From NCBI GenBank assembly GCA_934097105.1, contig CAKONI010000004.1:1-53157 (forward strand): a stretch of DNA of 53,157 nt, in the 5' to 3' direction. The number at the start of each line of letters is the position of its first letter. Within the stretch, counting starts at the first letter, position 1. Of this stretch, positions 8,807 to 20,344 are shown piece after piece. The notes beneath the pieces are model-generated. The model was not told the DNA's origin, did not search any database, and saw only the letters and a list, made by a program, of their open reading frames with translations. The position numbers and the translations under genes are program-made. This stretch comes from an uncultured Bacilli bacterium. GTDB taxonomy: Bacteria; Bacillota_I; Bacilli_A; RF39; UBA660.

Positions 8807-11800
8807 TTATCTAGTTACTTTTTTTATTATTACGTATGTTGAAAATAAGGTTATTAATGATAGTAATGTTAGTGAAATTATATTCATTTTTGTATCTTTA
8901 TTTTCTATTTTTATACCTGTTTTTGGTGGGGTTATTTCTAATATATTGTTTGTATTTATTGTTATATTTTTTTCAATTAATTTGTTTATTATGGTGTATC
9001 CATCGTAGATGGTATTGTATCCTTTTATTTTATGTTCTTTTATTTTGTAAATTATTTCTTTGCCGTTTTCGTATTTATCTAGATCTTTTAGCACGTAAAT
9101 CCAGTTATTTTTTTTGGTTATTTTTATTTGTTTTATTAAGGTGCTTCCTTTATAGATGTCTACTAGTATTTCGCTTGGTCTTAGGCCTTTTTCGTTATTG
9201 TTGTCTTTCCATATTTTTGTTATTTTAATATTTATTTTCTTTGTGTTATGGGTATTGGTGATGGTTGTTTGAACTTCATTTTTTACTTTTGTTACTGAAT
9301 TTTTTATACTTGTTTTGTATCCTTTTACTTCGCTTTCTATTATTTCATATTTTATTTCTTGGCCATTTTTGTATTTATCTAGATTTTTAAAGATATAGGT
9401 CCAGTTATTTTCTTTTGTTATTTTTTCTGTTTTATATAAAATGCCGTCTTTATATAGTTTTACAGTTATGCTTTTTGGTCTTATTCCGTCTTGGTTATTG
9501 TTATCGTTCCAGGATTTTTTTACCTTTATATTTATTTTTTCTGGAGCGTGTTTATTTGTTATGTCGAAGTTATTTATTGTTGTTTCGTAGCCGTTTACAT
9601 CTATTTCTTTTACTTTGTAATTTATTTCTTTGTTGTTTGCATATCTTATGATGTTTTCAAAGGAATAGGTCCAGTTTGTGCTTTCGCTTGCTTTAGTTCT
9701 TGCTATTTCATTATCTAGGTGATCGTATAAAATAATTGTTATTTCATTTGGTCTTATTCCGTCTTGGTTATTGTTATCATCCCATGATTTGGATCCTGTT
9801 ATAGTTATTGTTTCGGGATTATAAGTATTTATTATGTCGTATCCATCATAGGTTGTGTCGTAGTCTTTTACTGCTTCTTCACTTACTGTGTAGTTTATGA
9901 ATTTTCCTTTGCTATATTCTGGAAGATCAGTAAATTCATAGGTCCAGTTTTCTTCTTTTGTTATCTTTTTTTGTTTTTTTATTATGGAGGTTTCTCCGAC
10001 TTTTCCCTCAAGGGTTATGGTTATGCTGTTTGGTCTTTCATATTTGTTATTTTCATCTTTCCAAATTTTTTTGCCACTTATCGTAACATCTTTAGGATTA
10101 TGAGTATTTATAATTATAAATGGGTTGTCTTCGTCGTATGAAGTTTGATAGTATTTTTCAGTTTCTTTATCCATTTTTTCATTTACTAAGTATTCTATTT
10201 TCTTTCCGTTTTCATATTTTGGCAGGTTTTCGAATTTATAAATCCAGTTTTCTTCTTTTGTTATTTTTGTTGTTTTTATTATGTTATTGCAAGTGTTTTT
10301 GCAGAGATTAATTGTAATTTCATTTGGTCTTAAACCATCTTTATCGTTTTGATCAACCCATCTTTTTTCTCCGATTATATTTATTTTTTCTGGAATATGG
10401 GTGTTTGTTATTGTGAAGTTATTTATTGATGTTTCGTAACCATTTATTTTTTCTTCTTTTATGGTGTAGTTTATTTCATTTCCGTTTTCGTTTTTAGGAA
10501 GATTTGCAAATTCATAAGTCCAGTTTTCGTCTTTTGTTAGTTTTTTCATTTTTATTACTTTGTTATTTGCGAATAATTTTACTGTTATTTCGTTTGGTCT
10601 TATTCCGTCTTGGTTATTGTTATCATTCCATATTTTTTCTATCTTTATATTTTTTACTTCTGGGGTATAACTGTTTGTAATATTGTAGCCGTTTATAGAA
10701 GTTTCGTAATCCTTTACTTTTTCTTCTTTTATAGTGTAATTTATTTTATGGTTTTCGTCGTTTTCATAACCTGTTTCATATTTATAAAGATTAGTAAATG
10801 CATGAGTCCAGTTTTTATCTTTTGTTAATTTTTCTGTTTTTATTAGTTTGTTGTTTGCGAATAATTTTACTGTTATTTCATTTGGCCTTTTTTGATCGCG
10901 ATTGTTATCATCGTTCCATGTTTTTACAACTGGTATGTTTATTTTTTGGCGATTTAGTATATTTAAAGTTACTGTAGAGGTATTACTTGTAACTTTATCT
11001 GTTTCATTTTTTTGATTTATTTTTGTTGTTATTTTATAATCGAAGGTTACTTCTCCGGTTGTGTTTTCTAATGGCAAAAATGTAAATGTCCCATCTTGTT
11101 TTATATTAAGGGTTCCTTGTAATAGACCATTTTTATAAATATTGTAAGTACCATTTTCATTTTTTATAGTACTTTTATTTGTAATTATTTCTATTTCATC
11201 AGTAACTCTTACTTTATCATTTCCGGTTTTTATGTCTTCTTTTTTGTTATTTATTAGATCGTTTTTTAAAATTGAACTTCCGTTTATTGTGCTTTCTTGG
11301 TATCCTATATAAGTTGAATTATTTTCATAGTGATCATCTTTTGTTATTGCGGGAATATCTACGGCTGGTTTATCAAACTTAAGATTTAAATTTGTTTTGT
11401 CGTAGTATGGATTATTTTCTGAGACTGTTGTTTTAAGGGTGGCATTTTCGTTGGTGTAAATACTTCCATGATAGGTGTCTTTTGCTTTTACTGTGTAGGA
11501 TAAGTTATAATTTTTGTTTGATTCAAGATTTCCAATTTTCCATTTTAAAATGGTGCCGTTTTCGGTTTCTATTACTTCGACTTTCTTGTCTATTAAGTTC
11601 TTTTTAGAGTCACTAGTTAGGGTAAATTCTTTTGGAATTATATCTGTTAGGACACTATCTTTTCCAATTTTATTTATACTTTCTTCGATTACTTTTTCGA
11701 ATTTTTCTTTTAATTCTTTGCCTGATAGGGCTTTATAGTTTTTGTAAAGTGGACTTTCTGAGGTGTTTTTTGGATTTATGGCCTCTAATTTTTTTAGAAT

Positions 11801-12583
11801 TTCTTCGACTTCATTTTCATTATCTGTACTACCGAACGCTATTGTGTAGATGTCTGCGGTTTTGTTTTCTTGTTTTAATGAATCAAGTGAGTCTTTGGCT
11901 GCTTCGGATGGTCTTTTTGTTTTAGTGCAATCATAGTAGGTGTATTCTATACATACGGGATCGTCACTGCTACCTGTTCCAAGTCTTTGTCCATTATAAT
12001 TAAAGTATGTTGGAAGGCCATCGGTTAGAATTATTACTATTTGTTTAGCGTCTTTTCTTTTGCCTTTGTTTAGGAATTCTTTGGCTCTTACAATTCCTTG
12101 TTCTAGATTGGTGCCTCCACTTGCTTTTATGTTATCTATAAAGTTTATTACATCTTTTTTGTTTGTTGTCATTTCAAGTTTATTTTTATTTGCAGTTGTT
12201 GCAAATTCTACGACTCCGATTTTTACACTTTCTTTATCATCCATAAGGGTGTTTACTAGATCTTTTGCGGCTTCTTTGGCATTTTCTAACTTTTTAGAAT
12301 TTTTCATGCTTTTTGATTTATCGAGTACTAATACTATATCAAGTTTGTTGCTTTTTCTTGTTTCTTCATTATATGGATTTGCTTTTATATTTAGATTTAC
12401 TTTTGCAAGGCGTCCATATTCTAGATTGTCGCTTGTGAATTCTTGGGATATTTTGCTTGCCTCTTTTGTAATTTCTATTTTTCCGGCATTATTTTGAGCA
12501 GATATTGTGAAAATTGTAATTAGTGATAAGAAAAGTGTACTTAAAATTAGTTTTATTTTGTGTTTTTTTAGTTTATTTATCAT
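8807..12583 (-). CDS. Sortase-anchored adhesin: signal peptide, vWFA domain, 7 CnaB-type repeats, PPKTG sorting signal
   Basis: MIDAS motif DIVLVLDKSKSM, plus GGTNLEQG and LTDGLPT. Seven repeats of W(N/K)DxNNxDGxRPxEITVxL...NWTYxFxNLPKYxNGxEIxYxxxE. The C-terminus is PPKTG, a hydrophobic stretch, then KKVTR. Confidence 0.85.
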   Translation of the reverse strand: MINKLKKHKIKLILSTLFLSLITIFTISAQNNAGKIEITKEASKISQEFTSDNLEYGRLAKVNLNIKANPYNEETRKSNKLDIVLVLDKSKSMKNSKKLENAKEAAKDLVNTLMDDKESVKIGVVEFATTANKNKLEMTTNKKDVINFIDNIKASGGTNLEQGIVRAKEFLNKGKRKDAKQIVIILTDGLPTYFNYNGQRLGTGSSDDPVCIEYTYYDCTKTKRPSEAAKDSLDSLKQENKTADIYTIAFGSTDNENEVEEILKKLEAINPKNTSESPLYKNYKALSGKELKEKFEKVIEESINKIGKDSVLTDIIPKEFTLTSDSKKNLIDKKVEVIETENGTILKWKIGNLESNKNYNLSYTVKAKDTYHGSIYTNENATLKTTVSENNPYYDKTNLNLKFDKPAVDIPAITKDDHYENNSTYIGYQESTINGSSILKNDLINNKKEDIKTGNDKVRVTDEIEIITNKSTIKNENGTYNIYKNGLLQGTLNIKQDGTFTFLPLENTTGEVTFDYKITTKINQKNETDKVTSNTSTVTLNILNRQKINIPVVKTWNDDNNRDQKRPNEITVKLFANNKLIKTEKLTKDKNWTHAFTNLYKYETGYENDENHKINYTIKEEKVKDYETSINGYNITNSYTPEVKNIKIEKIWNDNNNQDGIRPNEITVKLFANNKVIKMKKLTKDENWTYEFANLPKNENGNEINYTIKEEKINGYETSINNFTITNTHIPEKINIIGEKRWVDQNDKDGLRPNEITINLCKNTCNNIIKTTKITKEENWIYKFENLPKYENGKKIEYLVNEKMDKETEKYYQTSYDEDNPFIIINTHNPKDVTISGKKIWKDENNKYERPNSITITLEGKVGETSIIKKQKKITKEENWTYEFTDLPEYSKGKFINYTVSEEAVKDYDTTYDGYDIINTYNPETITITGSKSWDDNNNQDGIRPNEITIILYDHLDNEIARTKASESTNWTYSFENIIRYANNKEINYKVKEIDVNGYETTINNFDITNKHAPEKINIKVKKSWNDNNNQDGIRPKSITVKLYKDGILYKTEKITKENNWTYIFKNLDKYKNGQEIKYEIIESEVKGYKTSIKNSVTKVKNEVQTTITNTHNTKKINIKITKIWKDNNNEKGLRPSEILVDIYKGSTLIKQIKITKKNNWIYVLKDLDKYENGKEIIYKIKEHKIKGYNTIYDGYTIINKLIEKNITINTNNILEITPPKTGIKIENKDTKMNIISLTLLSLITLFSTYVIIKKVTR
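9001..10927 (-). repeat. Coding tandem repeats (about 270-290 bp) for the 7 CnaB domains
   Basis: A recurrent DNA block ggtcttattccgtcttggttattgttatc occurs at about 9478, 9750 and 10596. Plus-strand ORFs across this region are shadows. Confidence 0.75.
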
Positions 12584-12725: not shown

Positions 12726-13594
12726 TTATTTTTTACCCATTAAAAGTTTTATGGTGCCTGTTTCATAGTATCTTACTCCGGCTTTTGGGGTTTGATCTAC
12801 TACTATGTCTCCGTCGCCGACATATGTTATTTCAAAGTTTGATAAATATTTCTTTGCTTCGTTTTTTGTCATTCCTATAACATTTGGTACATCGTAATAT
12901 TTTTTGTCCATCCATTCGTAATCTTTTTCTTTTTGGTTTGGTTGTTTTTCTATGTCCATTATGTTTATCATATCTAGGAGAATTTTTCTTACGAAAGGTG
13001 TTGTTGTGTAACTTGATAAAAGGGCTGTTTTTTTAGGATTGTCTATGGCTAAGTAGAGTACTACTTTAGGGTCATTACTTGGAAGTACTGCCATGAAACT
13101 CATTATGTAGTTGTTTTCTAGATATCTTCCGTTTTCTACCTTTTGGGCTGTTCCGGTTTTGCCTCCTATTCTATATCCATCTATGTAAGTTACTTTACCT
13201 CCGCCTTTAGCGACGACGCTTTCAAGGGCCATTCTTAATATATTTGAGGTGTTTTTACTTATTGTTTTTCTCACGAGTTGTTTATTTTTTTCTTTATAAA
13301 TATTTCCAGTTTTACTGTCTAAAAGACTTTTCATTATGTAAGGTTTGTACAAATTACCACCATTTACTATCGAAGAGACTGCTGTTATTTGTTGAATTGG
13401 TGTTACACTTACTCCTTGACCGAATGCTGTTGTTGCAAGTTCTAGATCTTTTACATCTTTTAGGTTAAATAAGATTCCTTTTCCCTCACCATTTAAATCT
13501 ATTCCTGTTTTTTCGCCGAAGCCGAATAAGTTTATGTATTTAAAGAGTTTATCTTTTCCTAGTGAGAATCCCATTTTCACAAATCCTGGGTTGC
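12726..13594 (-). CDS. spoVD: Class B PBP (SpoVD-like), C-terminal segment of a split gene: second half of the transpeptidase domain plus one PASTA domain
   Basis: PGFVKMGFSLGKDKL follows directly on from the NSCN that ends the upstream segment. Has the KTG motif (GGKTGTAQ) and a single PASTA domain (YDVPNVIGMTKNEAKKYL...). There is no native start; the track's 'M' is a TTG inside the junction. Confidence 0.85.
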
Positions 13595-15285
13595 TTTGTG
13601 TCAATACACGAACACTTTAAAACAGGAGTTTGTCTTCTACAAGCAGGGGTTTGCAACGACTTAGACTTAAGTTCGTTTTTTGTGTTCATATCCAAATCTA
13701 TATCAATATCTGGTGTATTAAAATCAAAATAAATAGATAATTTTATATACTTTCTATCACCATTAACTTTTTCAACTATAACCTTATCAACTAATAAATT
13801 TACCAAATAAGGTAAGTTTTCTTTAATATCCAATTTTACACTTAAGCAAGATTCAATATCACTAAATTTTTTACGCATTTTTTCTTCTTCTAAGTTCTCT
13901 CTTTTCGAACTGTCTATTTGCTTTTGTAAATTAAATAATTCAGTATTAAATTTATCATTTCTTTTTTTAAATTCAAAGTCATCAATCATACCTTTTAAAC
14001 TTAAATCTAACAATTTATCTTTTTGTTTATCAATTTGTTCTATCTTTCTTTTTATTTCTTCTGTATCTAATTCATCAGTAAAATTCTTAACAATATTTTT
14101 ATATTCTGATAAAACTTGTCCCAAATAGTCTTTTTTATGTTTAATGAAATCACTAAATAGATTAACAAATATTTTATCAAGATAACTTTCTTTTATAATT
14201 GGAGATTCACATTTTGACACTCCATCAGTTTTATAAGTTTTACAAGCCCATGTTGGATTTAAAGAACGATTCGATCCACCATTACGAATAAATATACTAT
14301 TACAATCTTTACAATATAATTTAGCCGAATACTTATATTTTTTTATGTGTTCTTCAGAATTGAGTACATGCCTAGATGGTAATTTTTTTCTTCTTTCATG
14401 CAAAGCATTTGCTTTGTCCCAAAGTTCTTCTGATACAATGGCAGGAATTCTATCATCTTTTTCTATAATTTGTTCTTCTTTAGGTATTTTTTTCTTTTTA
14501 TGAGTTTTATAATCTTCCACCTCAGTAAGTTTAGCAGTATAAAATCCCTTATATCTAGGGTTGGAAAGCATTTTTGCAAGAGCTGTCCCTGAATATGGTT
14601 TTCCTTTGGAATTTAAATATCCCATTTGTGCTAGTTCTTCGCCAATTTTTTTTAAGCCAAGACTACCACTTGCATAAGTAGTAAATAAATACTTTATGAT
14701 TGGTGCTTCATTTGGGTTAATTTCATATATTCCATTTTTCTTATAATATCCAGTTAAATTACCACCGATTAATTTTCTATCTTTAATCATTCTATTAATA
14801 CCAAATTTAACTCTTTCTGATAATTTACGAACTTCATCTTGTGCCATACTAGACATGATAGTAAGTCTAAACTCAGAATCTTCTTGAATTGTATTTAGAT
14901 TATCAGATAAAAAATATACTATAACACCTTGTTTCAATAAATATTCTGTATATTTGATACTATCAACCGTATTTCTGGAAAATCTAGAAATTTCTTTTGT
15001 TAAGATTAAATCAATTTTTCCTAAAGTTGCATCTTCAATCATTTTTAAGAAAGAATCACGATTTTTAACAGCTGTTCCACTGATTCCCTCATCAATATAT
15101 CCACGAGTAAAAATCCAATTAGAATTTTCTTTTATCATATCTTCAAAATAATTTTGTTGATTTTCTAACGAATTTAACTGATCATCTTTATCTGTTGAAA
15201 CACGACCATAATATGCAACTTTTAAATTCATATCATAAATTGTTTTACCTTTCCTTAATTCTTCTCTTGCTTTTTTTATTTCCAT
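13549..15285 (-). CDS. Large serine recombinase (resolvase domain, recombinase domain, zinc ribbon, coiled coil)
   Basis: Catalytic region YYGRVSTDKDDQLNSLENQ and KEISRFSRN. Recombinase-domain motif AKMLSNPRYKGF. Zn-ribbon cysteines CKDC...WACKTY...KCE, followed by a coiled-coil stretch. The last 13 codons (PRICENGILTRKR) lie beyond the TTGC junction in host PBP DNA. Confidence 0.9.
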   Translation of the reverse strand: MEIKKAREELRKGKTIYDMNLKVAYYGRVSTDKDDQLNSLENQQNYFEDMIKENSNWIFTRGYIDEGISGTAVKNRDSFLKMIEDATLGKIDLILTKEISRFSRNTVDSIKYTEYLLKQGVIVYFLSDNLNTIQEDSEFRLTIMSSMAQDEVRKLSERVKFGINRMIKDRKLIGGNLTGYYKKNGIYEINPNEAPIIKYLFTTYASGSLGLKKIGEELAQMGYLNSKGKPYSGTALAKMLSNPRYKGFYTAKLTEVEDYKTHKKKKIPKEEQIIEKDDRIPAIVSEELWDKANALHERRKKLPSRHVLNSEEHIKKYKYSAKLYCKDCNSIFIRNGGSNRSLNPTWACKTYKTDGVSKCESPIIKESYLDKIFVNLFSDFIKHKKDYLGQVLSEYKNIVKNFTDELDTEEIKRKIEQIDKQKDKLLDLSLKGMIDDFEFKKRNDKFNTELFNLQKQIDSSKRENLEEEKMRKKFSDIESCLSVKLDIKENLPYLVNLLVDKVIVEKVNGDRKYIKLSIYFDFNTPDIDIDLDMNTKNELKSKSLQTPACRRQTPVLKCSCIDTKQPRICENGILTRKR

Positions 15286-15326
15286 AAATAGTACTTCCTT
15301 TCATGTGTTCCTAAAATTCAAGATAA

Positions 15327-15572
15327 CTAGGATGCTTGCATGGTAGCTCCATAATCAGCATTTGTCAAATCATTTTTTTCGTTCAATAAATATTCTTTTC
15401 TTACCTTTTTAAGTCTTCCCATAATAGAATTTTCCATTTCATTATATGTTCTTAAATCAATAACTTTTTCATCGTATAATTCTTTATTAACAATTAGCCT
15501 ATATTCCAATAACTTATATTCAAAAGGTAATTGTTTGGTACTAAACCTAACTTCTATATCATTTTCTAGCAT
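15327..15572 (-). CDS. Small hypothetical protein (81 aa) 41 nt upstream of the recombinase; candidate directionality/accessory factor
   Basis: Intact ORF with a GGAGGT RBS, co-oriented and adjacent to the recombinase. I recognise no motif. Confidence 0.45.
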   Translation of the reverse strand: MLENDIEVRFSTKQLPFEYKLLEYRLIVNKELYDEKVIDLRTYNEMENSIMGRLKKVRKEYLLNEKNDLTNADYGATMQAS

Positions 15573-15747
15573 TTAGATTTACCTCCAATAAAACCTATGT
15601 CAAAGTTTTTGGACTTATTCATTAGCATCACCTGTTTTAATTATCCCTTTTTGTAGAGAATTATCTTTTTCTAACGGATCTTTCAAATGAATTTCAATAG
15701 TATATTTAGTATTGTTACCATTATCAATTTCTAGATGATATGCTTCT

Positions 15748-15957
15748 TTATTTTTTTGTTATTCCTATTTCTGTATAATCTATCATATTTAGTTTGTATA
15801 TTTTTAAGCTTATTGCAATTATTATTTTCTTATACTCATTATCAGTATAAATATGATAAATTTCATGCTTTTCAGTTTCTAATTCTTTAATACTTAACCT
15901 GTAATCAATTAAATTTTCAATTCTTTCAACTTCACTATTTGTCTTTTTTATTTCCAT
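15748..15957 (-). CDS. Hypothetical small protein, possibly frameshifted at its 3' end
   Basis: Start MEIKKTNSEV sits behind an AAGGAGG RBS. The ORF stops just after an A7 run (15751-15757), and the +1 frame continues for about 45 more codons (KEAYHLEIDNGNNTKYTIEIHLKD...). Confidence 0.4.
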   Translation of the reverse strand: MEIKKTNSEVERIENLIDYRLSIKELETEKHEIYHIYTDNEYKKIIIAISLKIYKLNMIDYTEIGITKK

Positions 15958-16076
15958 ACTATAACCTCCTTGTAAGAAAAAAGAGCAATGCAATAATACA
16001 CATCGCTCTTTAGAATTTTTTCTTACAATACCATATTATCATAAAAGAGTGATTATGAATGTCCATCTTATATTTT

Positions 16077-16499
16077 TTAAATATTTCTTTTTTGCTTATA
16101 AACCCTATAAATAAGTCTACATTGCGATACAGATAAATTAACCTTATTTGATATCTCAGTCCATTTCAATTTTTGTGTTAAATCTTCTTTATAATAAATA
16201 ATTCATTTTTCCTTTTCTTTATATTTATTTAATCTTTTTAATTCCATGCTAACATATTTTAAAAGTATTTCTTTTTCTTTATAAAGCATTGATAATTTTT
16301 CATCATATTTTTGATTGTTAAAAATATAATATAAAAACTTATTTTTTTCTACTCTACTTGTAAAAACAACATCTTTTTTATATACAGTAGCTTGTGGTAA
16401 AACTTTTGATTTTTCACATTCTTTTTTATTCAATATATTATTTATTTGACTCTCTAATACAATAATCCTATCATTGGCCACTTTCAAGTTCATTTTCAT
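16077..16499 (-). pseudogene. Phage/ICE-type regulator (coiled coil plus sigma-70 region-4-like HTH, DUF1492-like) with an in-frame TGA
   Basis: The ORF ends at TGA 16203-16205. The same frame then continues IIYYKEDLTQKLKWTEISNKVNLSVSQCRLIYRVYKQKRNI to TAA 16077-16079, which looks like a region-4-type HTH. Confidence 0.45.
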
Positions 16500-16951
16500 T
16501 TCCCCCAATCTATTTTAATACTATAATTACTTATAAGATTTTTCTTGAGGAGGAAATGAATCTTATAATTTCTATAAAGCAAAAAAAGAGTGAGAAACAG
16601 CCTATTTTCTAAACTATTTTTCACTCTTTTAATTATTTCAACTTTTTGAGGACAAAATTCCCCATTCGATTTGTAAATTAACGATATAAAACGATCAAAT
16701 TCATAAAACAATAGAAAAATACGTAGCGCTATACCATACCCCTAAAATATAAATCTGAAACCTATAGTAATGTTGATATTATTATTTATCAAGATTTTTT
16801 TCACTAAACTTAGTAATAAAATAGGACAGAATTTTTTCATGTAGATTTTTTTCAATCAAATGTATTATCCATACTGAAATATGCTTTTTTTTACAAGTTT
16901 CTTTGTGCTGTCAGAAGTATTATAACAATTTTTTTTTAGCAATTTCTCTAT

Positions 16952-17179
16952 TTAACTTGAAATTTTTGGAAAATAACATAATAAATGAAATGAATAATTA
17001 AGCTTTACATCAAATTCAATTCCATTTATAACTTTTATATCAGTATCTAATGTTTCTATATAATTATGCTCTGTAAATGAAATGTACTTTAAATTTTGCT
17101 GTTTTGCCATTGTTAATATTTCTACTCTAAAACGCTTTTCACCAGTAACCAAAGAATGTACATGCAAATCATACTTCAT
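16952..17179 (-). pseudogene. PHP-domain phosphoesterase, N-terminal fragment
   Basis: MKYDLHVHSLVTGE...FTEHNY...NGIEFD matches the PHP N-terminal His motifs. It is only 75 aa, against a usual length of more than 200 aa. An in-frame TAA is followed by another 28 open codons. Confidence 0.55.
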
Positions 17180-17181
17180 AG

Positions 17182-17637
17182 TTATATCCTCTTTGAATTA
17201 TTTAATCGATAATTCAACTCCCAAAGAGCATTTTTATTGCTATCCCATCTTAATTTTTTTATAGCATCTTCATAATAAAGCCATTCCATTTTAGAATGTT
17301 CATGGGAAAGTTTTATGTTTTTACTTTTGCAACCAATTCCAAAACAGTGTTCATATATTAATATCACATCTTCTCCCCAAATGAAGTCCTTTGTCACATT
17401 GGGAACTGGCATTGTACAAACAGATTCTAGTTCAATTAAATCAGTAAAGTCAGTAATGCCTGCTTCTTCATTAGCCTCTCTAATACATGCATCTTTATAA
17501 GACTCATCTTCATCTTCTACTCCGCCAGCAATGCCTTGCCATATTTCTTTTGAACCATTTCTACAAAAAATCCCATATAAGTATTTGTCATTTTCTTTAA
17601 TGAATGGAAACGCCAATATCTGATGTGGTTTTCTCAT
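17182..17637 (-). CDS. NUDIX hydrolase (NudB-like)
   Basis: Nudix box GGVEDEDESYKDACIREANEEAGI (GX5EX7REUXEEXGU). 151 aa and intact. Confidence 0.8.
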   Translation of the reverse strand: MRKPHQILAFPFIKENDKYLYGIFCRNGSKEIWQGIAGGVEDEDESYKDACIREANEEAGITDFTDLIELESVCTMPVPNVTKDFIWGEDVILIYEHCFGIGCKSKNIKLSHEHSKMEWLYYEDAIKKLRWDSNKNALWELNYRLNNSKRI

Positions 17638-17977
17638 AATATCTCCTCACTTCTTTAACTAACATTATATAATTCTTAAATAAAATATGCAATATTAAAA
17701 AAACCATTTTTATAGAAATAGTTTTATGTGTAATTATATCTTCTGACAATGTTTTTATTTTAAAACTTAATATATCTAATAGTTTTGCTCCAATATCTTC
17801 TTTTAGAGAGTTTATATAGTTATATAATTTTTTTACCAATCTTTTCACATATAATATATCTTCATTATTTTCAACTATCATACAATAACAAAGACTGGTA
17901 TTTTCATATCCTTTCTTTATTTCTAATTTATTAAAATTATCAAATTGTTTAGACTCTTTATGAAATGTAACTAACAA
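17597..17977 (-). CDS. Hypothetical protein; the frame is open upstream without a start, so it may be the 3' part of a frameshifted gene
   Basis: The same frame stays open upstream to about 18112 (EKIAISLFDKLDKEILSINNGIKRNYLIKNVAYRF...). It meets ORF 18088-18369 at an A6 run (18115-18120). Confidence 0.35.
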   Translation of the reverse strand: MLVTFHKESKQFDNFNKLEIKKGYENTSLCYCMIVENNEDILYVKRLVKKLYNYINSLKEDIGAKLLDILSFKIKTLSEDIITHKTISIKMVFLILHILFKNYIMLVKEVRRYYEKTTSDIGVSIH

Positions 17978-18087
17978 ATTATTTTGATTTATCTGAATTT
18001 CTAAAATTTTATTTATAAATCTATATGCTACATTTTTAATTAAGTAATTTCTTTTTATCCCATTATTAATACTTAATATTTCCTTAT

Positions 18088-18369
18088 CTAATTTATCAAA
18101 TAATGATATAGCAATTTTTTCTTATTAAATATAAGATTTTCATAAGTATTAGTATCAATATTATTTTTAGAATCTTCTTTTATTTTAATTACATTAAATG
18201 ATTGTTTCATATTATTATCAAATTCAATCCTTTCATTACTAGAGTATTCAACACCATCATAAATCAAATTATATGTAGAACAAACATCAATTTTGGCACT
18301 ATATTTTATACTATTTGCAAGGGTTTCTTCAAATTCAAAAGTGTTCCTGTATTTACTCCAAGATTGCAT
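18088..18369 (-). CDS. Junction ORF (93 aa) at the right end of the element, hypothetical
   Basis: The A and T of its ATG (18369-18368) are host PBP bases and the G (18367) is the junction core base. Codon 2 (CAA, 18366-18364) lies in the TTGC core. There is no RBS upstream. Confidence 0.3.
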   Translation of the reverse strand: MQSWSKYRNTFEFEETLANSIKYSAKIDVCSTYNLIYDGVEYSSNERIEFDNNMKQSFNVIKIKEDSKNNIDTNTYENLIFNKKKLLYHYLIN

Positions 18370-19409
18370 GAGTTTTCAAATACTTGAAGAAATGTTTGAG
18401 CACCATGGCCACCGGGTTTCCAGCATTTAATTTTTGCACCGGATACTTTTACGGATCCACTGTCATAGAATGTATCTTTTTCTAGGTTTACTGCGCCCTC
18501 TTCTACAGCAGCCGCGGTTGTTATTATTTTAAAGGTAGAGCCTGGTTCATATGTCATCCATATTGGAAGATTTCTATTTAATGTTTCTGTATCATATTTT
18601 TTATAATTGTTAGGATCAAAATTTGGTCTTGAACTCATTCCTAGAATTTCTCCAGTATTAGGGTCCATAGCGACCGCTAAAGCATGATCGGGAGTAAAGG
18701 CTTTTGCTATGTTATCTAGTTCTCTTTCAATTGATGTTTGAATATCAAAGTCTACTGTTAGCATTACATCAAGTCCAGATGATGGTTCAGTATATACTTC
18801 GGCCATATCTAGTTTATTTCCTTTAGCATCACTATAATATTTAATCGCGCCATCTTCTCCGGTTAAATACTCATCATATAAAAGTTCTATTCCCGAAAGT
18901 CCTTGGTTATCTATTCCTGTATAACCAAGTACATGAGAAAGCATTTTTCCATTTGGATAATTTCTTTTTGCTTCTTTTACTAAATAAACCCCATCAAAAT
19001 TATAACTATTTATTTTATCTGCTATTTCATATGATAAGTTTCTCCCCTCTGGATGAACCCTTTCTATCGATGCTTTTTTAGTTACATGTTTGTACATATC
19101 ATCATAAGGAGTATTTAAAATATCGCTTAGGGTTTTTGCAACTTCTTCCGGATTTTTTATTTGATTAGGAATTATTATAAGACTAGTTATTGTTATATTA
19201 TCCGCAAGAATCTTACCATTTCTATCTAGGATTTTTCCCCTAGAAGCACTTATTGGAAGTTCTCTACTCCATAAATCATCTGATAAAGTGCTTAATTTGT
19301 TATATGAAAATACTTGTACATATAAAATACGAATAAATATTATTATAAATAAAAGGACTGCTCCAAGAAATATAAATTTCATTCTTTCATTATATTTTTT
19401 AGTAAACAT
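18363..19409 (-). CDS. spoVD: Class B PBP (SpoVD-like), N-terminal segment of a split gene: TM anchor, dimerisation domain, first half of the transpeptidase domain
   Basis: Signal-anchor MKFIFLGAVLLFIIIFI. SxxK motif GSTFK. The segment KCWKPGGHGAQTFLQVFENSCN ends in the SxN motif. After N the frame runs 19 codons into the element and stops (track ORF 18306-19409). Confidence 0.85.
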
Positions 19410-19846: not shown

Positions 19847-20344
19847 TTATTGTAATTGAAAAGACATGCCTTTCTTACTTTTGCTCAAAATATATACATG
19901 TGATTTTTTGAACTGTTCTTTATTAATTAATTCTTCTACTTCATCTTTTTTTAACCATGATATAGAAGTGACTTCATCTTCATTTAGTTTTATATCTTTT
20001 GGATTAATTGTTTGGTTGGTGTAGTAAATAGCAAAGAATGCTTTTCCGTTTGGATGTTTTTCGTATCCTAAAAACTTTATTTTATCTTTTATTAAATGAA
20101 TTCCTATTTCTTCTTTGGTTTCCCTTATTATGGCTTCAAGCGGTATTTCTTTATGAAGAACATGCCCACCAGTTAGTCCGTATTTACTACCTTTTTCACT
20201 TGAACTTTTTTGAATTAAAAATTTGTTGTTATTTTCTATAATTATAGTAGAAAGCATAATATAATTATTTTCTACTTTTTCTCCTCTTGTTATTGTTTTG
20301 CCAGTTAAATTATGATTTTCATCATATAAATCTAATATTTCCAT
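19847..20344 (-). CDS. NUDIX hydrolase
   Basis: Nudix box GGHVLHKEIPLEAIIRETKEEIGI. 165 aa. Confidence 0.8.
   Translation of the reverse strand: MEILDLYDENHNLTGKTITRGEKVENNYIMLSTIIIENNNKFLIQKSSSEKGSKYGLTGGHVLHKEIPLEAIIRETKEEIGIHLIKDKIKFLGYEKHPNGKAFFAIYYTNQTINPKDIKLNEDEVTSISWLKKDEVEELINKEQFKKSHVYILSKSKKGMSFQLQ

Follow-up and report, generated by a model that had tools for sequence, protein, structure and literature searches.

The 53,157-nucleotide stretch analysed here (contig CAKONI010000004.1 of assembly GCA_934097105.1, from an uncultured Bacilli bacterium; hereafter the window) carries on the (-) strand a class B penicillin-binding protein (PBP) gene of the spoVD type, which is cut into two parts by a 4.77-kb element of lower GC, and the large serine recombinase (LSR) gene of this element runs across the attachment junction into host DNA. 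According to the explanation towards which we lean, attP lies within the LSR gene, the gene is split there on integration, and a C-terminal module of ~306 residues (hereafter the extension) is thereby removed from the enzyme and restored again at attP-type joints. The split-gene anatomy itself is very probably real and maintained by selection, as judged from the comparison of related elements. The earlier note on this DNA had proposed that the C-terminus of the recombinase switches with the recombination state, and this was borne out by the conservation of the frame, by the coding nature of the extension and by contigs in the attP form. The features concerned are as follows.

12726-13592, (-) strand: 3' part of the spoVD-type PBP gene, with the remaining transpeptidase domain and PASTA (Pfam).
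13549-15285, (-) strand: LSR gene, integrated short form of 578 amino acids (aa); residues 1-565 are encoded by the element, residues 566-578 and the stop by the host.
13591-13592, (-) strand: attL crossover AA, the last two bases of LSR codon 565 (CAA), with the P arm (AAAGTGTTCGTGTATTGACACAAAGC) just 5' of it, within the open reading frame (ORF).
17719-18363, (-) strand: relic of the extension, codons 1 to ~216 of 306; homology stops at 17719 (deletion or replacement).
18088-18369, (-) strand: ORF93 (ATG CAA and 91 codons), made of the first 86 extension codons and 5 out-of-frame codons.
18364-18365, (-) strand: attR crossover AA, with host bases on the 5' side and the P' arm of the element (TCTTGGAGTAAATACAGGAACA) on the 3' side.
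18364-19409, (-) strand: 5' part of the spoVD-type PBP gene, with PBP_dimer and the start of the transpeptidase domain (Pfam), ending ...TCA TGC AA at the crossover.

The LSR was matched by the Pfam domains PF00239 (residues 24-166, E 1e-27), PF07508 (Recombinase, residues 191-298) and PF13408 (Zn_ribbon_recom, residues 320-375), all three of which lie upstream of the crossover. The motif YGRVSTDKD was present in the catalytic domain, the closest solved chain was 3g13 (catalytic domain of a conjugative-transposon recombinase, E 1e-40), and a K/E-rich, heptad-like stretch at about residues 400-500 suggests the coiled coil. The gene was confirmed to read ...ATT GAC ACA AAG CAA / CCC AGG ATT TGT...TAA, with the CAA codon at 13593-13591, and its last 13 residues (PRICENGILTRKR) are host-encoded as the earlier note had said, from the +1 frame of the 3' half of the PBP gene. 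The LSR of the window was 97% identical to the first 565 residues of two 871-aa proteins (P0002 and P0003). Among its best 120 homologues (78-97% identity), 119 read through the crossover and the exception (P0071) was frameshifted. The homologous LSRs read ...C-x-C-[IV]-[DN]-T-K-Q, followed by 4-20 host-dependent residues (PRIC, SRLC, SWICKTW...), and the differences between these tails track synonymous differences in the host gene.

The crossover was mapped by comparing 24 junctions (two loci duplicate others). The exchanged core had been taken to be TTGC; since the host has TGT in place of TGC before the junction in 17 of the 24, and in such hosts attB (..TGT AA CCN GG..) and attP (..AAGC AA TCTTGG..) have AA alone in common, the core was corrected to AA (TT on the + strand), in line with the 2-bp overlap at which serine integrases cross over. 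Between them, P and P' make up an imperfect inverted repeat with 21/30 matches (L003), and the arms of the window are intact, with one mismatch per arm relative to L003. Both attP arms are coding, the P arm as ...VLKCSCIDTKQ of the LSR and the P' arm as SWSKYRNTF of the downstream frame. In spore-forming gut Bacilli with small genomes, the family appears to insert into spoVD at the AA within its Ser-Cys-Asn codons.

When the element was removed in silico, the flanks joined as a PBP ORF of 636 aa without a stop, reading ...FENSCNPGFVKMG..., which was colinear with the intact 636-aa orthologue in the same-genus genome G063 and with the uninterrupted gene of G209 (open frame of ~650 aa); at the insertion point these two intact orthologues read ...GAAAACTC(A/T)TGTAACCCAGG.... 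The G063 orthologue scored 699 bits against the NCBIfam model TIGR02214 (spoVD_pbp, cut-off 688 bits), and profile searches found Spo0A_C in 4/5 and SpoIVA in 5/5 of the host relatives. The insertion target is, on the basis of these profile results, best identified as spoVD of a spore-former with a small genome (~1.1 Mb). Two further transpeptidase genes were present in the window's own genome; the alternative that the host is too small to sporulate and that the PBP is a redundant division enzyme was ruled out by the Spo0A, SpoIVA and TIGR02214 results. Neither the attP form nor the restored attB form was found in the host's own metagenome-assembled genome (MAG), which is 56% complete.

The joint expected from recombination of the two ends was found exactly in P0002 and P0003 (871 aa each), which read ...CSCIDTKQSWSKYRNTFEFEETLANS... 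across it. P0002 is encoded on a contig of 7.2 kb, and P0003 on one of 33.8 kb together with VirB4-like, TraG/VirD4-like (type IV coupling protein) and MobL-relaxase genes and an M23 peptidase, and the cargo downstream on the 33.8-kb contig comprises Macro, type III restriction-modification (methylase) and helicase genes. By tblastx, the contig of P0003 corresponds, in circularly permuted order, to a 29.3-kb element that interrupts spoVD in G154, with the breakpoint at the junction. The 29.3-kb element and L003, both relatives of the window element, carry the transfer genes of an integrative and conjugative element (ICE), and the family appears to include full ICEs of ~29-34 kb. A contig of another sub-lineage from the JGI (L091) holds the 81-aa ORF that neighbours the LSR, the LSR and the extension, the latter two in a single frame of 548+311 codons (859), and two further sub-lineages are represented by fragments of fused joints (P0268 and P0265). 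No terminator-like site was found between the LSR core and the extension in the fused form. A strict lineage-A attP pattern had no match in the genome or JGI metagenome contigs, and a generic pattern matched 5 loci.

For the coding status of the frame after the crossover, the 306 residues after Q in P0003 were used as the query and 400 other genomes of the host order were searched. Of the 399 genomes in the host family, 24 gave matches, which represent 21 of 145 genera if the window's own genome is included; the match always began at query residue 1, directly after the crossover AA. Intact frames of 306-311 codons with 37-55% identity occurred in at least 11 genomes, with 0 stops vs 21-75 in the other two frames (chance P ~1e-16). 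The suggestion that the 93-codon open frame of the window exceeds chance was upheld, P being ~7e-5 for 91 open codons at a stop probability of ~0.10-0.11 per codon and ~1e-16 for the 307-311-codon frames of the relatives. By the method of Nei-Gojobori, the ratio of nonsynonymous to synonymous substitution (dN/dS) was 0.13-0.53 for codons 71-306, 0.14-0.84 for codons 10-50, in which the protein motif IxVCSTxNLIY is found, and ~1 for the variable linker at codons 51-70. The extension was therefore found conserved as a coding region, and these values point to a real gene under purifying selection. No match for it was obtained in NCBIfam; its relatives numbered 104 in a profile search of 1.84 billion cluster representatives, which marks a narrow family, and none of them was a further long fusion to an LSR.

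The same frame is poorly provided with starts. In most hosts the extension is immediately preceded by TAA (from TGT AA) and is therefore start-less when integrated; its first in-frame ATG, GTG or TTG lies at a variable place from codon 9 to codon 100, Shine-Dalgarno-like motifs are rare, and in L004 and L008 codons 7-75 hold no ATG, GTG or TTG. Gene callers accordingly returned products of 239-331 aa with inconsistent starts. In the window the right-end ORF (18088-18369) does begin ATG CAA TCT TGG, with its CAA at 18366-18364 in the same phase as that of the LSR, and this ATG is made of host bases as had been noticed; as a general start for the extension it does not stand, being an accident of the host codons TCA TGC.

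The junction-spanning frame was expected, if functional, to be kept in related elements, and it was kept in several of them. Sub-lineages with LSRs ~69% identical to that of the window have much longer and different linkers, and yet their frame stays open and in phase, the crossover again falling on an xAA codon: the linker ends as ...KCCRIHQNE/PWICKF... in G185 and G297, as ...LLCSDSNTKQ/ in G322, where one copy lies in a target gene other than spoVD, and elsewhere among them as ...LLCSNGNIKQ/. The spanning frame and its phase are thus retained in at least three diverged LSR sub-lineages with different linker lengths. The linker of one ~69%-identity sub-lineage also holds a degenerate fossil attP (both arms) ~120 nt upstream of the active attP (L050/L087, about 2170-2240). 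In two MAGs (L088 and L089), the inverted 3' half of spoVD was joined at the upstream fossil attP and followed by 38 codons of the LSR tail and an intact extension. The G322 copy outside spoVD (L018, L049, L090; G322:C6 39140-81330) is a family member of ~42 kb in a long coiled-coil-rich hypothetical ORF (...SLEKEA/IQALRTSK...), and it keeps the split-recombinase layout and an intact extension of 311 codons.

For the structure of the extension, a single-sequence AF2 prediction was unusable (predicted local distance difference test, pLDDT, 35) and was replaced by a model on an alignment of 36 sequences, with a mean pLDDT of 79. Residues 1-70 were poorly defined in it, and residues 71-300 (pLDDT mostly 80-97 per 10-residue block, 60 near 251-260) formed two similar alpha/beta units. 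The Pfam family DUF5655 (PF18899) was matched by 36/36 aligned members at E <= 0.01 (best 4e-12), the reference member scoring 19.9 bits, which is below the 24-bit cut-off. With VIA-align, each unit resembled YdhG-like proteins (Z 10.1), YjbR (8.7) and T4 MotA in the sigma-appropriation complex (8.1), and also frataxin/CyaY-like proteins. In a Foldseek search of the PDB the extension had no match with E <= 0.001, the only high-probability rows being the per-domain ones for MotA-CTD, YjbR and YdhG, among which the C-terminal DNA-binding domain of MotA had a probability of ~1. The structural-neighbour cluster in the ESM Atlas was DUF5655 (template modelling score 0.68-0.75), a domain commonly fused there to GmrSD, HsdR-N, GIY-YIG and NucS nucleases, and a literature search on DUF5655 returned only an unrelated mention. 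The extension is accordingly modelled as a pair of putative DUF5655 domains of predicted YdhG/YjbR/MotA-CTD-like fold, preceded by a variable linker and, at the N-terminus, by a short conserved piece.

According to the proposed mechanism, attP in the main lineage would lie in the linker between a catalytic and DNA-binding core (residues 1 to ~535) and the C-terminal module of ~306 residues. The integrated element would make the short enzyme alone, with 565 residues and 4-20 arbitrary host-encoded ones (~570-585 aa), and the 3' part of the gene would stay at the far end of the element as a start-less frame, usually behind TAA. Excision, or any attP-type joint, would re-create a single frame of ~860-871 codons. 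The long isoform would be made from the circle, its extra module probably acting on DNA with the recombinase in integration or in establishment after transfer, and the short form, with a conserved 81-aa neighbour as candidate directionality factor, would excise the element and rebuild spoVD. That the module works in recombination or integration is a live possibility, about which we are slightly more doubtful than confident; that it sets the direction is unlikely. An LSR that rewires itself, with a long isoform made only from attP-type joints, whose tandem DNA-binding module would favour integration or restrict the enzyme to it, a short isoform made only from the integrated copy for partner-assisted excision, and a direction partly encoded in the topology of the gene, is likewise an unlikely proposition.

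Several observations weigh against this explanation. The attP-type joints are rare, P0002 and P0003 being the sole full fusions among 5.8 billion proteins; the chromosomal joint of G264 belongs to a tandem array, as its inner junction (LSR/extension ... second LSR/spoVD 3' half), and therefore attP-type joints need not be free circles and the contigs are no proof of circles. The identities of LSR and extension are uncoupled (89% vs 54% in G154; 69% vs 79-89% in the G264 hybrid), which argues against tightly co-evolved contacts between core and module, and the common phase across sub-lineages would keep such LSR/extension hybrids in frame. On either side, the 8-10 codons nearest the crossover are under constraint from the att arms, and part of the conservation there is at the DNA level. 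Binding of nucleic acid (DNA) by the module is a reasonable reading of its modelled fold and domain neighbours alone.

A sister lineage bears on the same point. A different LSR (53% identical, 527-531 aa) was found at the same AA crossover in cassettes of 4-6.5 kb in G100, G069, L077 and L082; in G150 this LSR and the extension lie on separate contigs, and their pairing is unconfirmed. Its P arm is unrelated (...GCCAGAAATCCCGCCCCCGAG AA), and its frame is closed by an in-phase TAA that lies 16 codons short of the crossover, so that spanning of the junction, against which the earlier note had said that homologues with a stop before the core would speak, is not universal in the family. The same extension gene is kept at the other end of these cassettes, the end modules being 85% and 93% identical at the DNA level between G100 and G069 and the cargo between them replaced. 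A GTG start of its own, at codon 10 and with AGGA 8 nt upstream, was seen for the extension of G100, L077, L082 and L084 (variant ...NIFVFVEKL); the extension of G069 is without such a GTG start and truncated to 285 codons. To judge from these cassettes, the extension can be kept free-standing and expressed when integrated, and covalent fusion would not be indispensable, which is a further point against the explanation in its strict form. Because a start codon appears exactly where fusion is unavailable, the same cassettes strengthen the view that expression of the extension is under selection and that fusion is the main lineage's probable way to express it. Both lineages would thus make the extension along with the LSR when the element is in the attP configuration, either fused to it or from a cistron behind it, which fits a role at that stage. 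The cargo of the sister cassettes (L074 in G100:C4, L075 in G069:C9, L077 and L082) concerns DNA-base chemistry, with an HhH-GPD glycosylase, a uracil-DNA glycosylase (UDG), a methyltransferase, a cytidylate-kinase-like protein and ASCH.

The extension of the window itself is broken. Both its 81-aa ORF with the LSR (15757-13591) and its right end (18367-17719) are 94% identical to L003 (blastn and alignment), and ORF93 is 98% identical to residues 565-649 of P0003. The genome search recovered the extension as two pieces, 87% and 95% identical, and a 1-nt deletion between 18119 and 18118, in a AAGAAGAAAA run, shifts its frame at codon 86. The 91 codons that had been regarded as the full extension are consequently the front of a 306-codon frame. 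The fusion of ~656 aa deduced from the window is correct as a joint, since 15285-13591 joined in silico to 18363-18088 gives 656 codons with no internal stop; as the long form it is not, the true length being ~860-871 aa, and the 656-aa product is best described as a truncated relic of the 871-aa protein. The extension of G264 is also broken by a single-base change in an A-rich run (GATAAAAAGAAA; L050), as is that of the window (18111-18130), and these breaks could be real decay or homopolymer assembly errors.

The remainder of the element contains the following features.

15327-15572, (-) strand: 81-aa ORF directly upstream of the recombinase, kept across all sub-lineages.
15758-17718, (-) strand: interior foreign to the reference ICE, with a NUDIX gene (17182-17637), a PHP-domain fragment (16952-17179) and small ORFs (Pfam).

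The 81-aa ORF adjoins every LSR of the family that was examined, with 47-91% identity; it had no Pfam or NCBIfam match and is a candidate directionality factor or regulator. The interior (15808-17718) gave no blastn match to L002 or L003, and a short match of 86% was obtained over 15744-15807; the NUDIX gene was assigned by Pfam with E 2e-10. According to the ORF list and Pfam, the 4.77-kb element has no genes for a type IV secretion ATPase, a coupling protein or a relaxase, and the window copy appears to be a decayed derivative of an ICE-containing family and itself no ICE.

For this one copy, it is quite likely that the junction-spanning frame is a fossil, that the 656-aa product is idle and that a skin-like mini-element needs only the short LSR and a small partner. 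Skin-type elements intervene in sporulation genes, as with SpoIVCA in sigK, SprA-SprB in spsM and the gin element in gerE; to our knowledge, their recombinase gene does not span the att site. Like them, the window element is an LSR element precisely inside a mother-cell sporulation gene (spoVD) of a spore-former, its exact removal in silico restores the frame, and a small conserved ORF lies beside the recombinase. Unlike skin, it has relatives with type IV secretion and relaxase genes. The frameshift at codon 86 and the loss after codon 216, which make the extension a pseudogene in the window and thus also weigh against the proposed mechanism there, speak for the fossil, as do the small size without transfer genes, the presence of Spo0A and SpoIVA in the hosts, the NCBIfam identification of the target as spoVD and the decayed extensions of many other remnants. 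Because the extension is broken, the short form alone can matter in the window element, and with its intact LSR, 81-aa ORF and att arms the mini-element may still excise and rebuild spoVD. Such decay is compatible with the explanation at the family level; it describes one copy and leaves the intact, selected extensions elsewhere unexplained.

At the family level, the closest alternative to the split recombinase is a circle-specific expression device, in which the fusion merely lends promoter and start to a module whose job is unrelated to strand exchange, such as regulation of transfer genes or the protection or marking of incoming DNA. The extension follows immediately on the 5' half of spoVD in the same orientation and, being start-less, would be silent despite host transcription; it would work unfused in the sister cassettes, it and the LSR are modules that are shuffled between elements, DUF5655 is typically attached to restriction and defence nucleases, and the ICE genes that follow the extension are cargo of the defence type (Macro, type III methylase and helicase). 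Precedents for joint-dependent expression are given by Tn916 and by TnpX of Tn4451, as far as the references of PMC13023037 describe them. Read-through transcription and a ribosome-binding site of its own would suffice for such a device, as in Tn916; yet the main lineage keeps the start-less fusion through large linker indels. In the sister cassettes the module can be expressed when integrated, so that strict circle-specificity is not universal, and the extension alone is retained at the attR end through the turnover of all cargo, which fits a core function in recombination or maintenance better than a cargo role. We consider this device rather unlikely. Still weaker is the view of the extension as an ordinary gene with an internal or non-canonical start, its shared frame being an inconsequential result of att-arm constraint: a phase match alone is a 1-in-3 chance, the att arms are constrained as DNA, an ATG occurs near codons 44-52, shortly ahead of the folded domains, in about half of the extension sequences, and a non-spanning recombinase works at the same site in the sister lineage, but start position and Shine-Dalgarno motif are not conserved, several intact extensions are without a start before codon 69-100, codons 10-50 are conserved as protein (dN/dS down to 0.14), the LSR linker is open over 30-75 codons in lineages with large indels, including the fossil attP, and an own start appears exactly where fusion is unavailable, all of which makes this view highly improbable. 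The extension as a recombination directionality factor fused in cis was rejected as the leading explanation, as it would favour excision in the state that needs integration.

The split LSR was compared with known systems. Archaeal viruses and plasmids (SSV1, pT26-2) carry 'suicidal' tyrosine integrases of the SSV type, in which the att site lies inside the integrase gene and integration inactivates the enzyme (PMC7253208). Here too, attP is inside the recombinase ORF, integration partitions the gene, the circle joint restores it, and hybrid genes arise from halves of different origin (LSR and extension modules). Unlike the archaeal tyrosine recombinases, which are left as two inactive pseudogenes, the bacterial LSR keeps its catalytic and att-binding core and loses an accessory C-terminal module, and the window family is therefore taken to resemble the SSV-type split integrases in the partitioning without being a member of that group. 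Joint-dependent transcription, as outlined in PMC13023037 and the references therein, is exerted by the circle-joint promoter of TnpX in Tn4451/Tn4453, by joint read-through in Tn916 and by the state-dependent int promoters of ICEKp1 and ICEclc. In these systems, so far as that source describes them, the recombination state likewise alters expression across the joined ends, and TnpX is also a clostridial LSR; they are transcription switches, whereas in the present family the joint lies within the coding frame and would change the protein itself. In the integration-dependent immunity of mycobacteriophages, attP lies inside the repressor gene (PMC3694055), and as here the integrated and free forms have different C-termini, with differing behaviour in the phage case. 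There, a repressor is cut by a tyrosine integrase and the difference is a degradation tag of few residues; here it is a folded module of 300 residues. A literature search returned no description of a serine recombinase gene that spans attP and gains or loses a folded domain, a large LSR survey makes no mention of an attP-spanning recombinase gene in the passages that were searched, and phage mv4, which was checked as a possible precedent, gave nothing relevant.

How large serine integrases control direction is actively studied, both for the mechanism itself and for genome engineering, and current explanations invoke coiled-coil contacts and separate directionality factors. In the present family, a folded module of 300 residues would naturally be lost from the enzyme on integration and regained on excision, with two isoforms that are directly comparable. 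If the self-rewiring proposition is true, direction would not depend solely on a separate directionality factor. The principle of a recombination site in the recombinase gene, so far that of the suicidal archaeal tyrosine integrases, would be extended to bacterial LSRs with a surviving core; the widespread spoVD-splitting elements of uncultured gut spore-formers are linked to conjugative elements, and the uncharacterised DUF5655 domain gains a defined, testable context.

Some further insertions and neighbouring genes were recorded. A second, unrelated LSR element (recombinase ~41-42% identical, with its gene at the left end) was seen in the same spoVD near codon 297, at G154:C39 86130-105210, G185:C19 (L045) and G264:C3 (L054), and with two LSR elements in one spoVD the gene is therefore in three pieces in some genomes. 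In G154, spoIVA was found on two contigs, at G154:C12 120239-120607 and G154:C43 4871-5224 (profile positions 1-124 and 120-237, respectively), and may be a further sporulation gene that is split, or the contigs may simply end there through a break in the assembly. In the host flank of the window, a second NUDIX-like gene was judged by eye at 19847-20344 on the (-) strand. Directly downstream of spoVD, a surface protein of 1258 aa is encoded at 8807-12583 on the (-) strand, for which an N-terminal signal, a VWA-like region, many Cna-B-type repeats and a C-terminal PPKTG sorting-like motif with a membrane anchor were recognised by eye.

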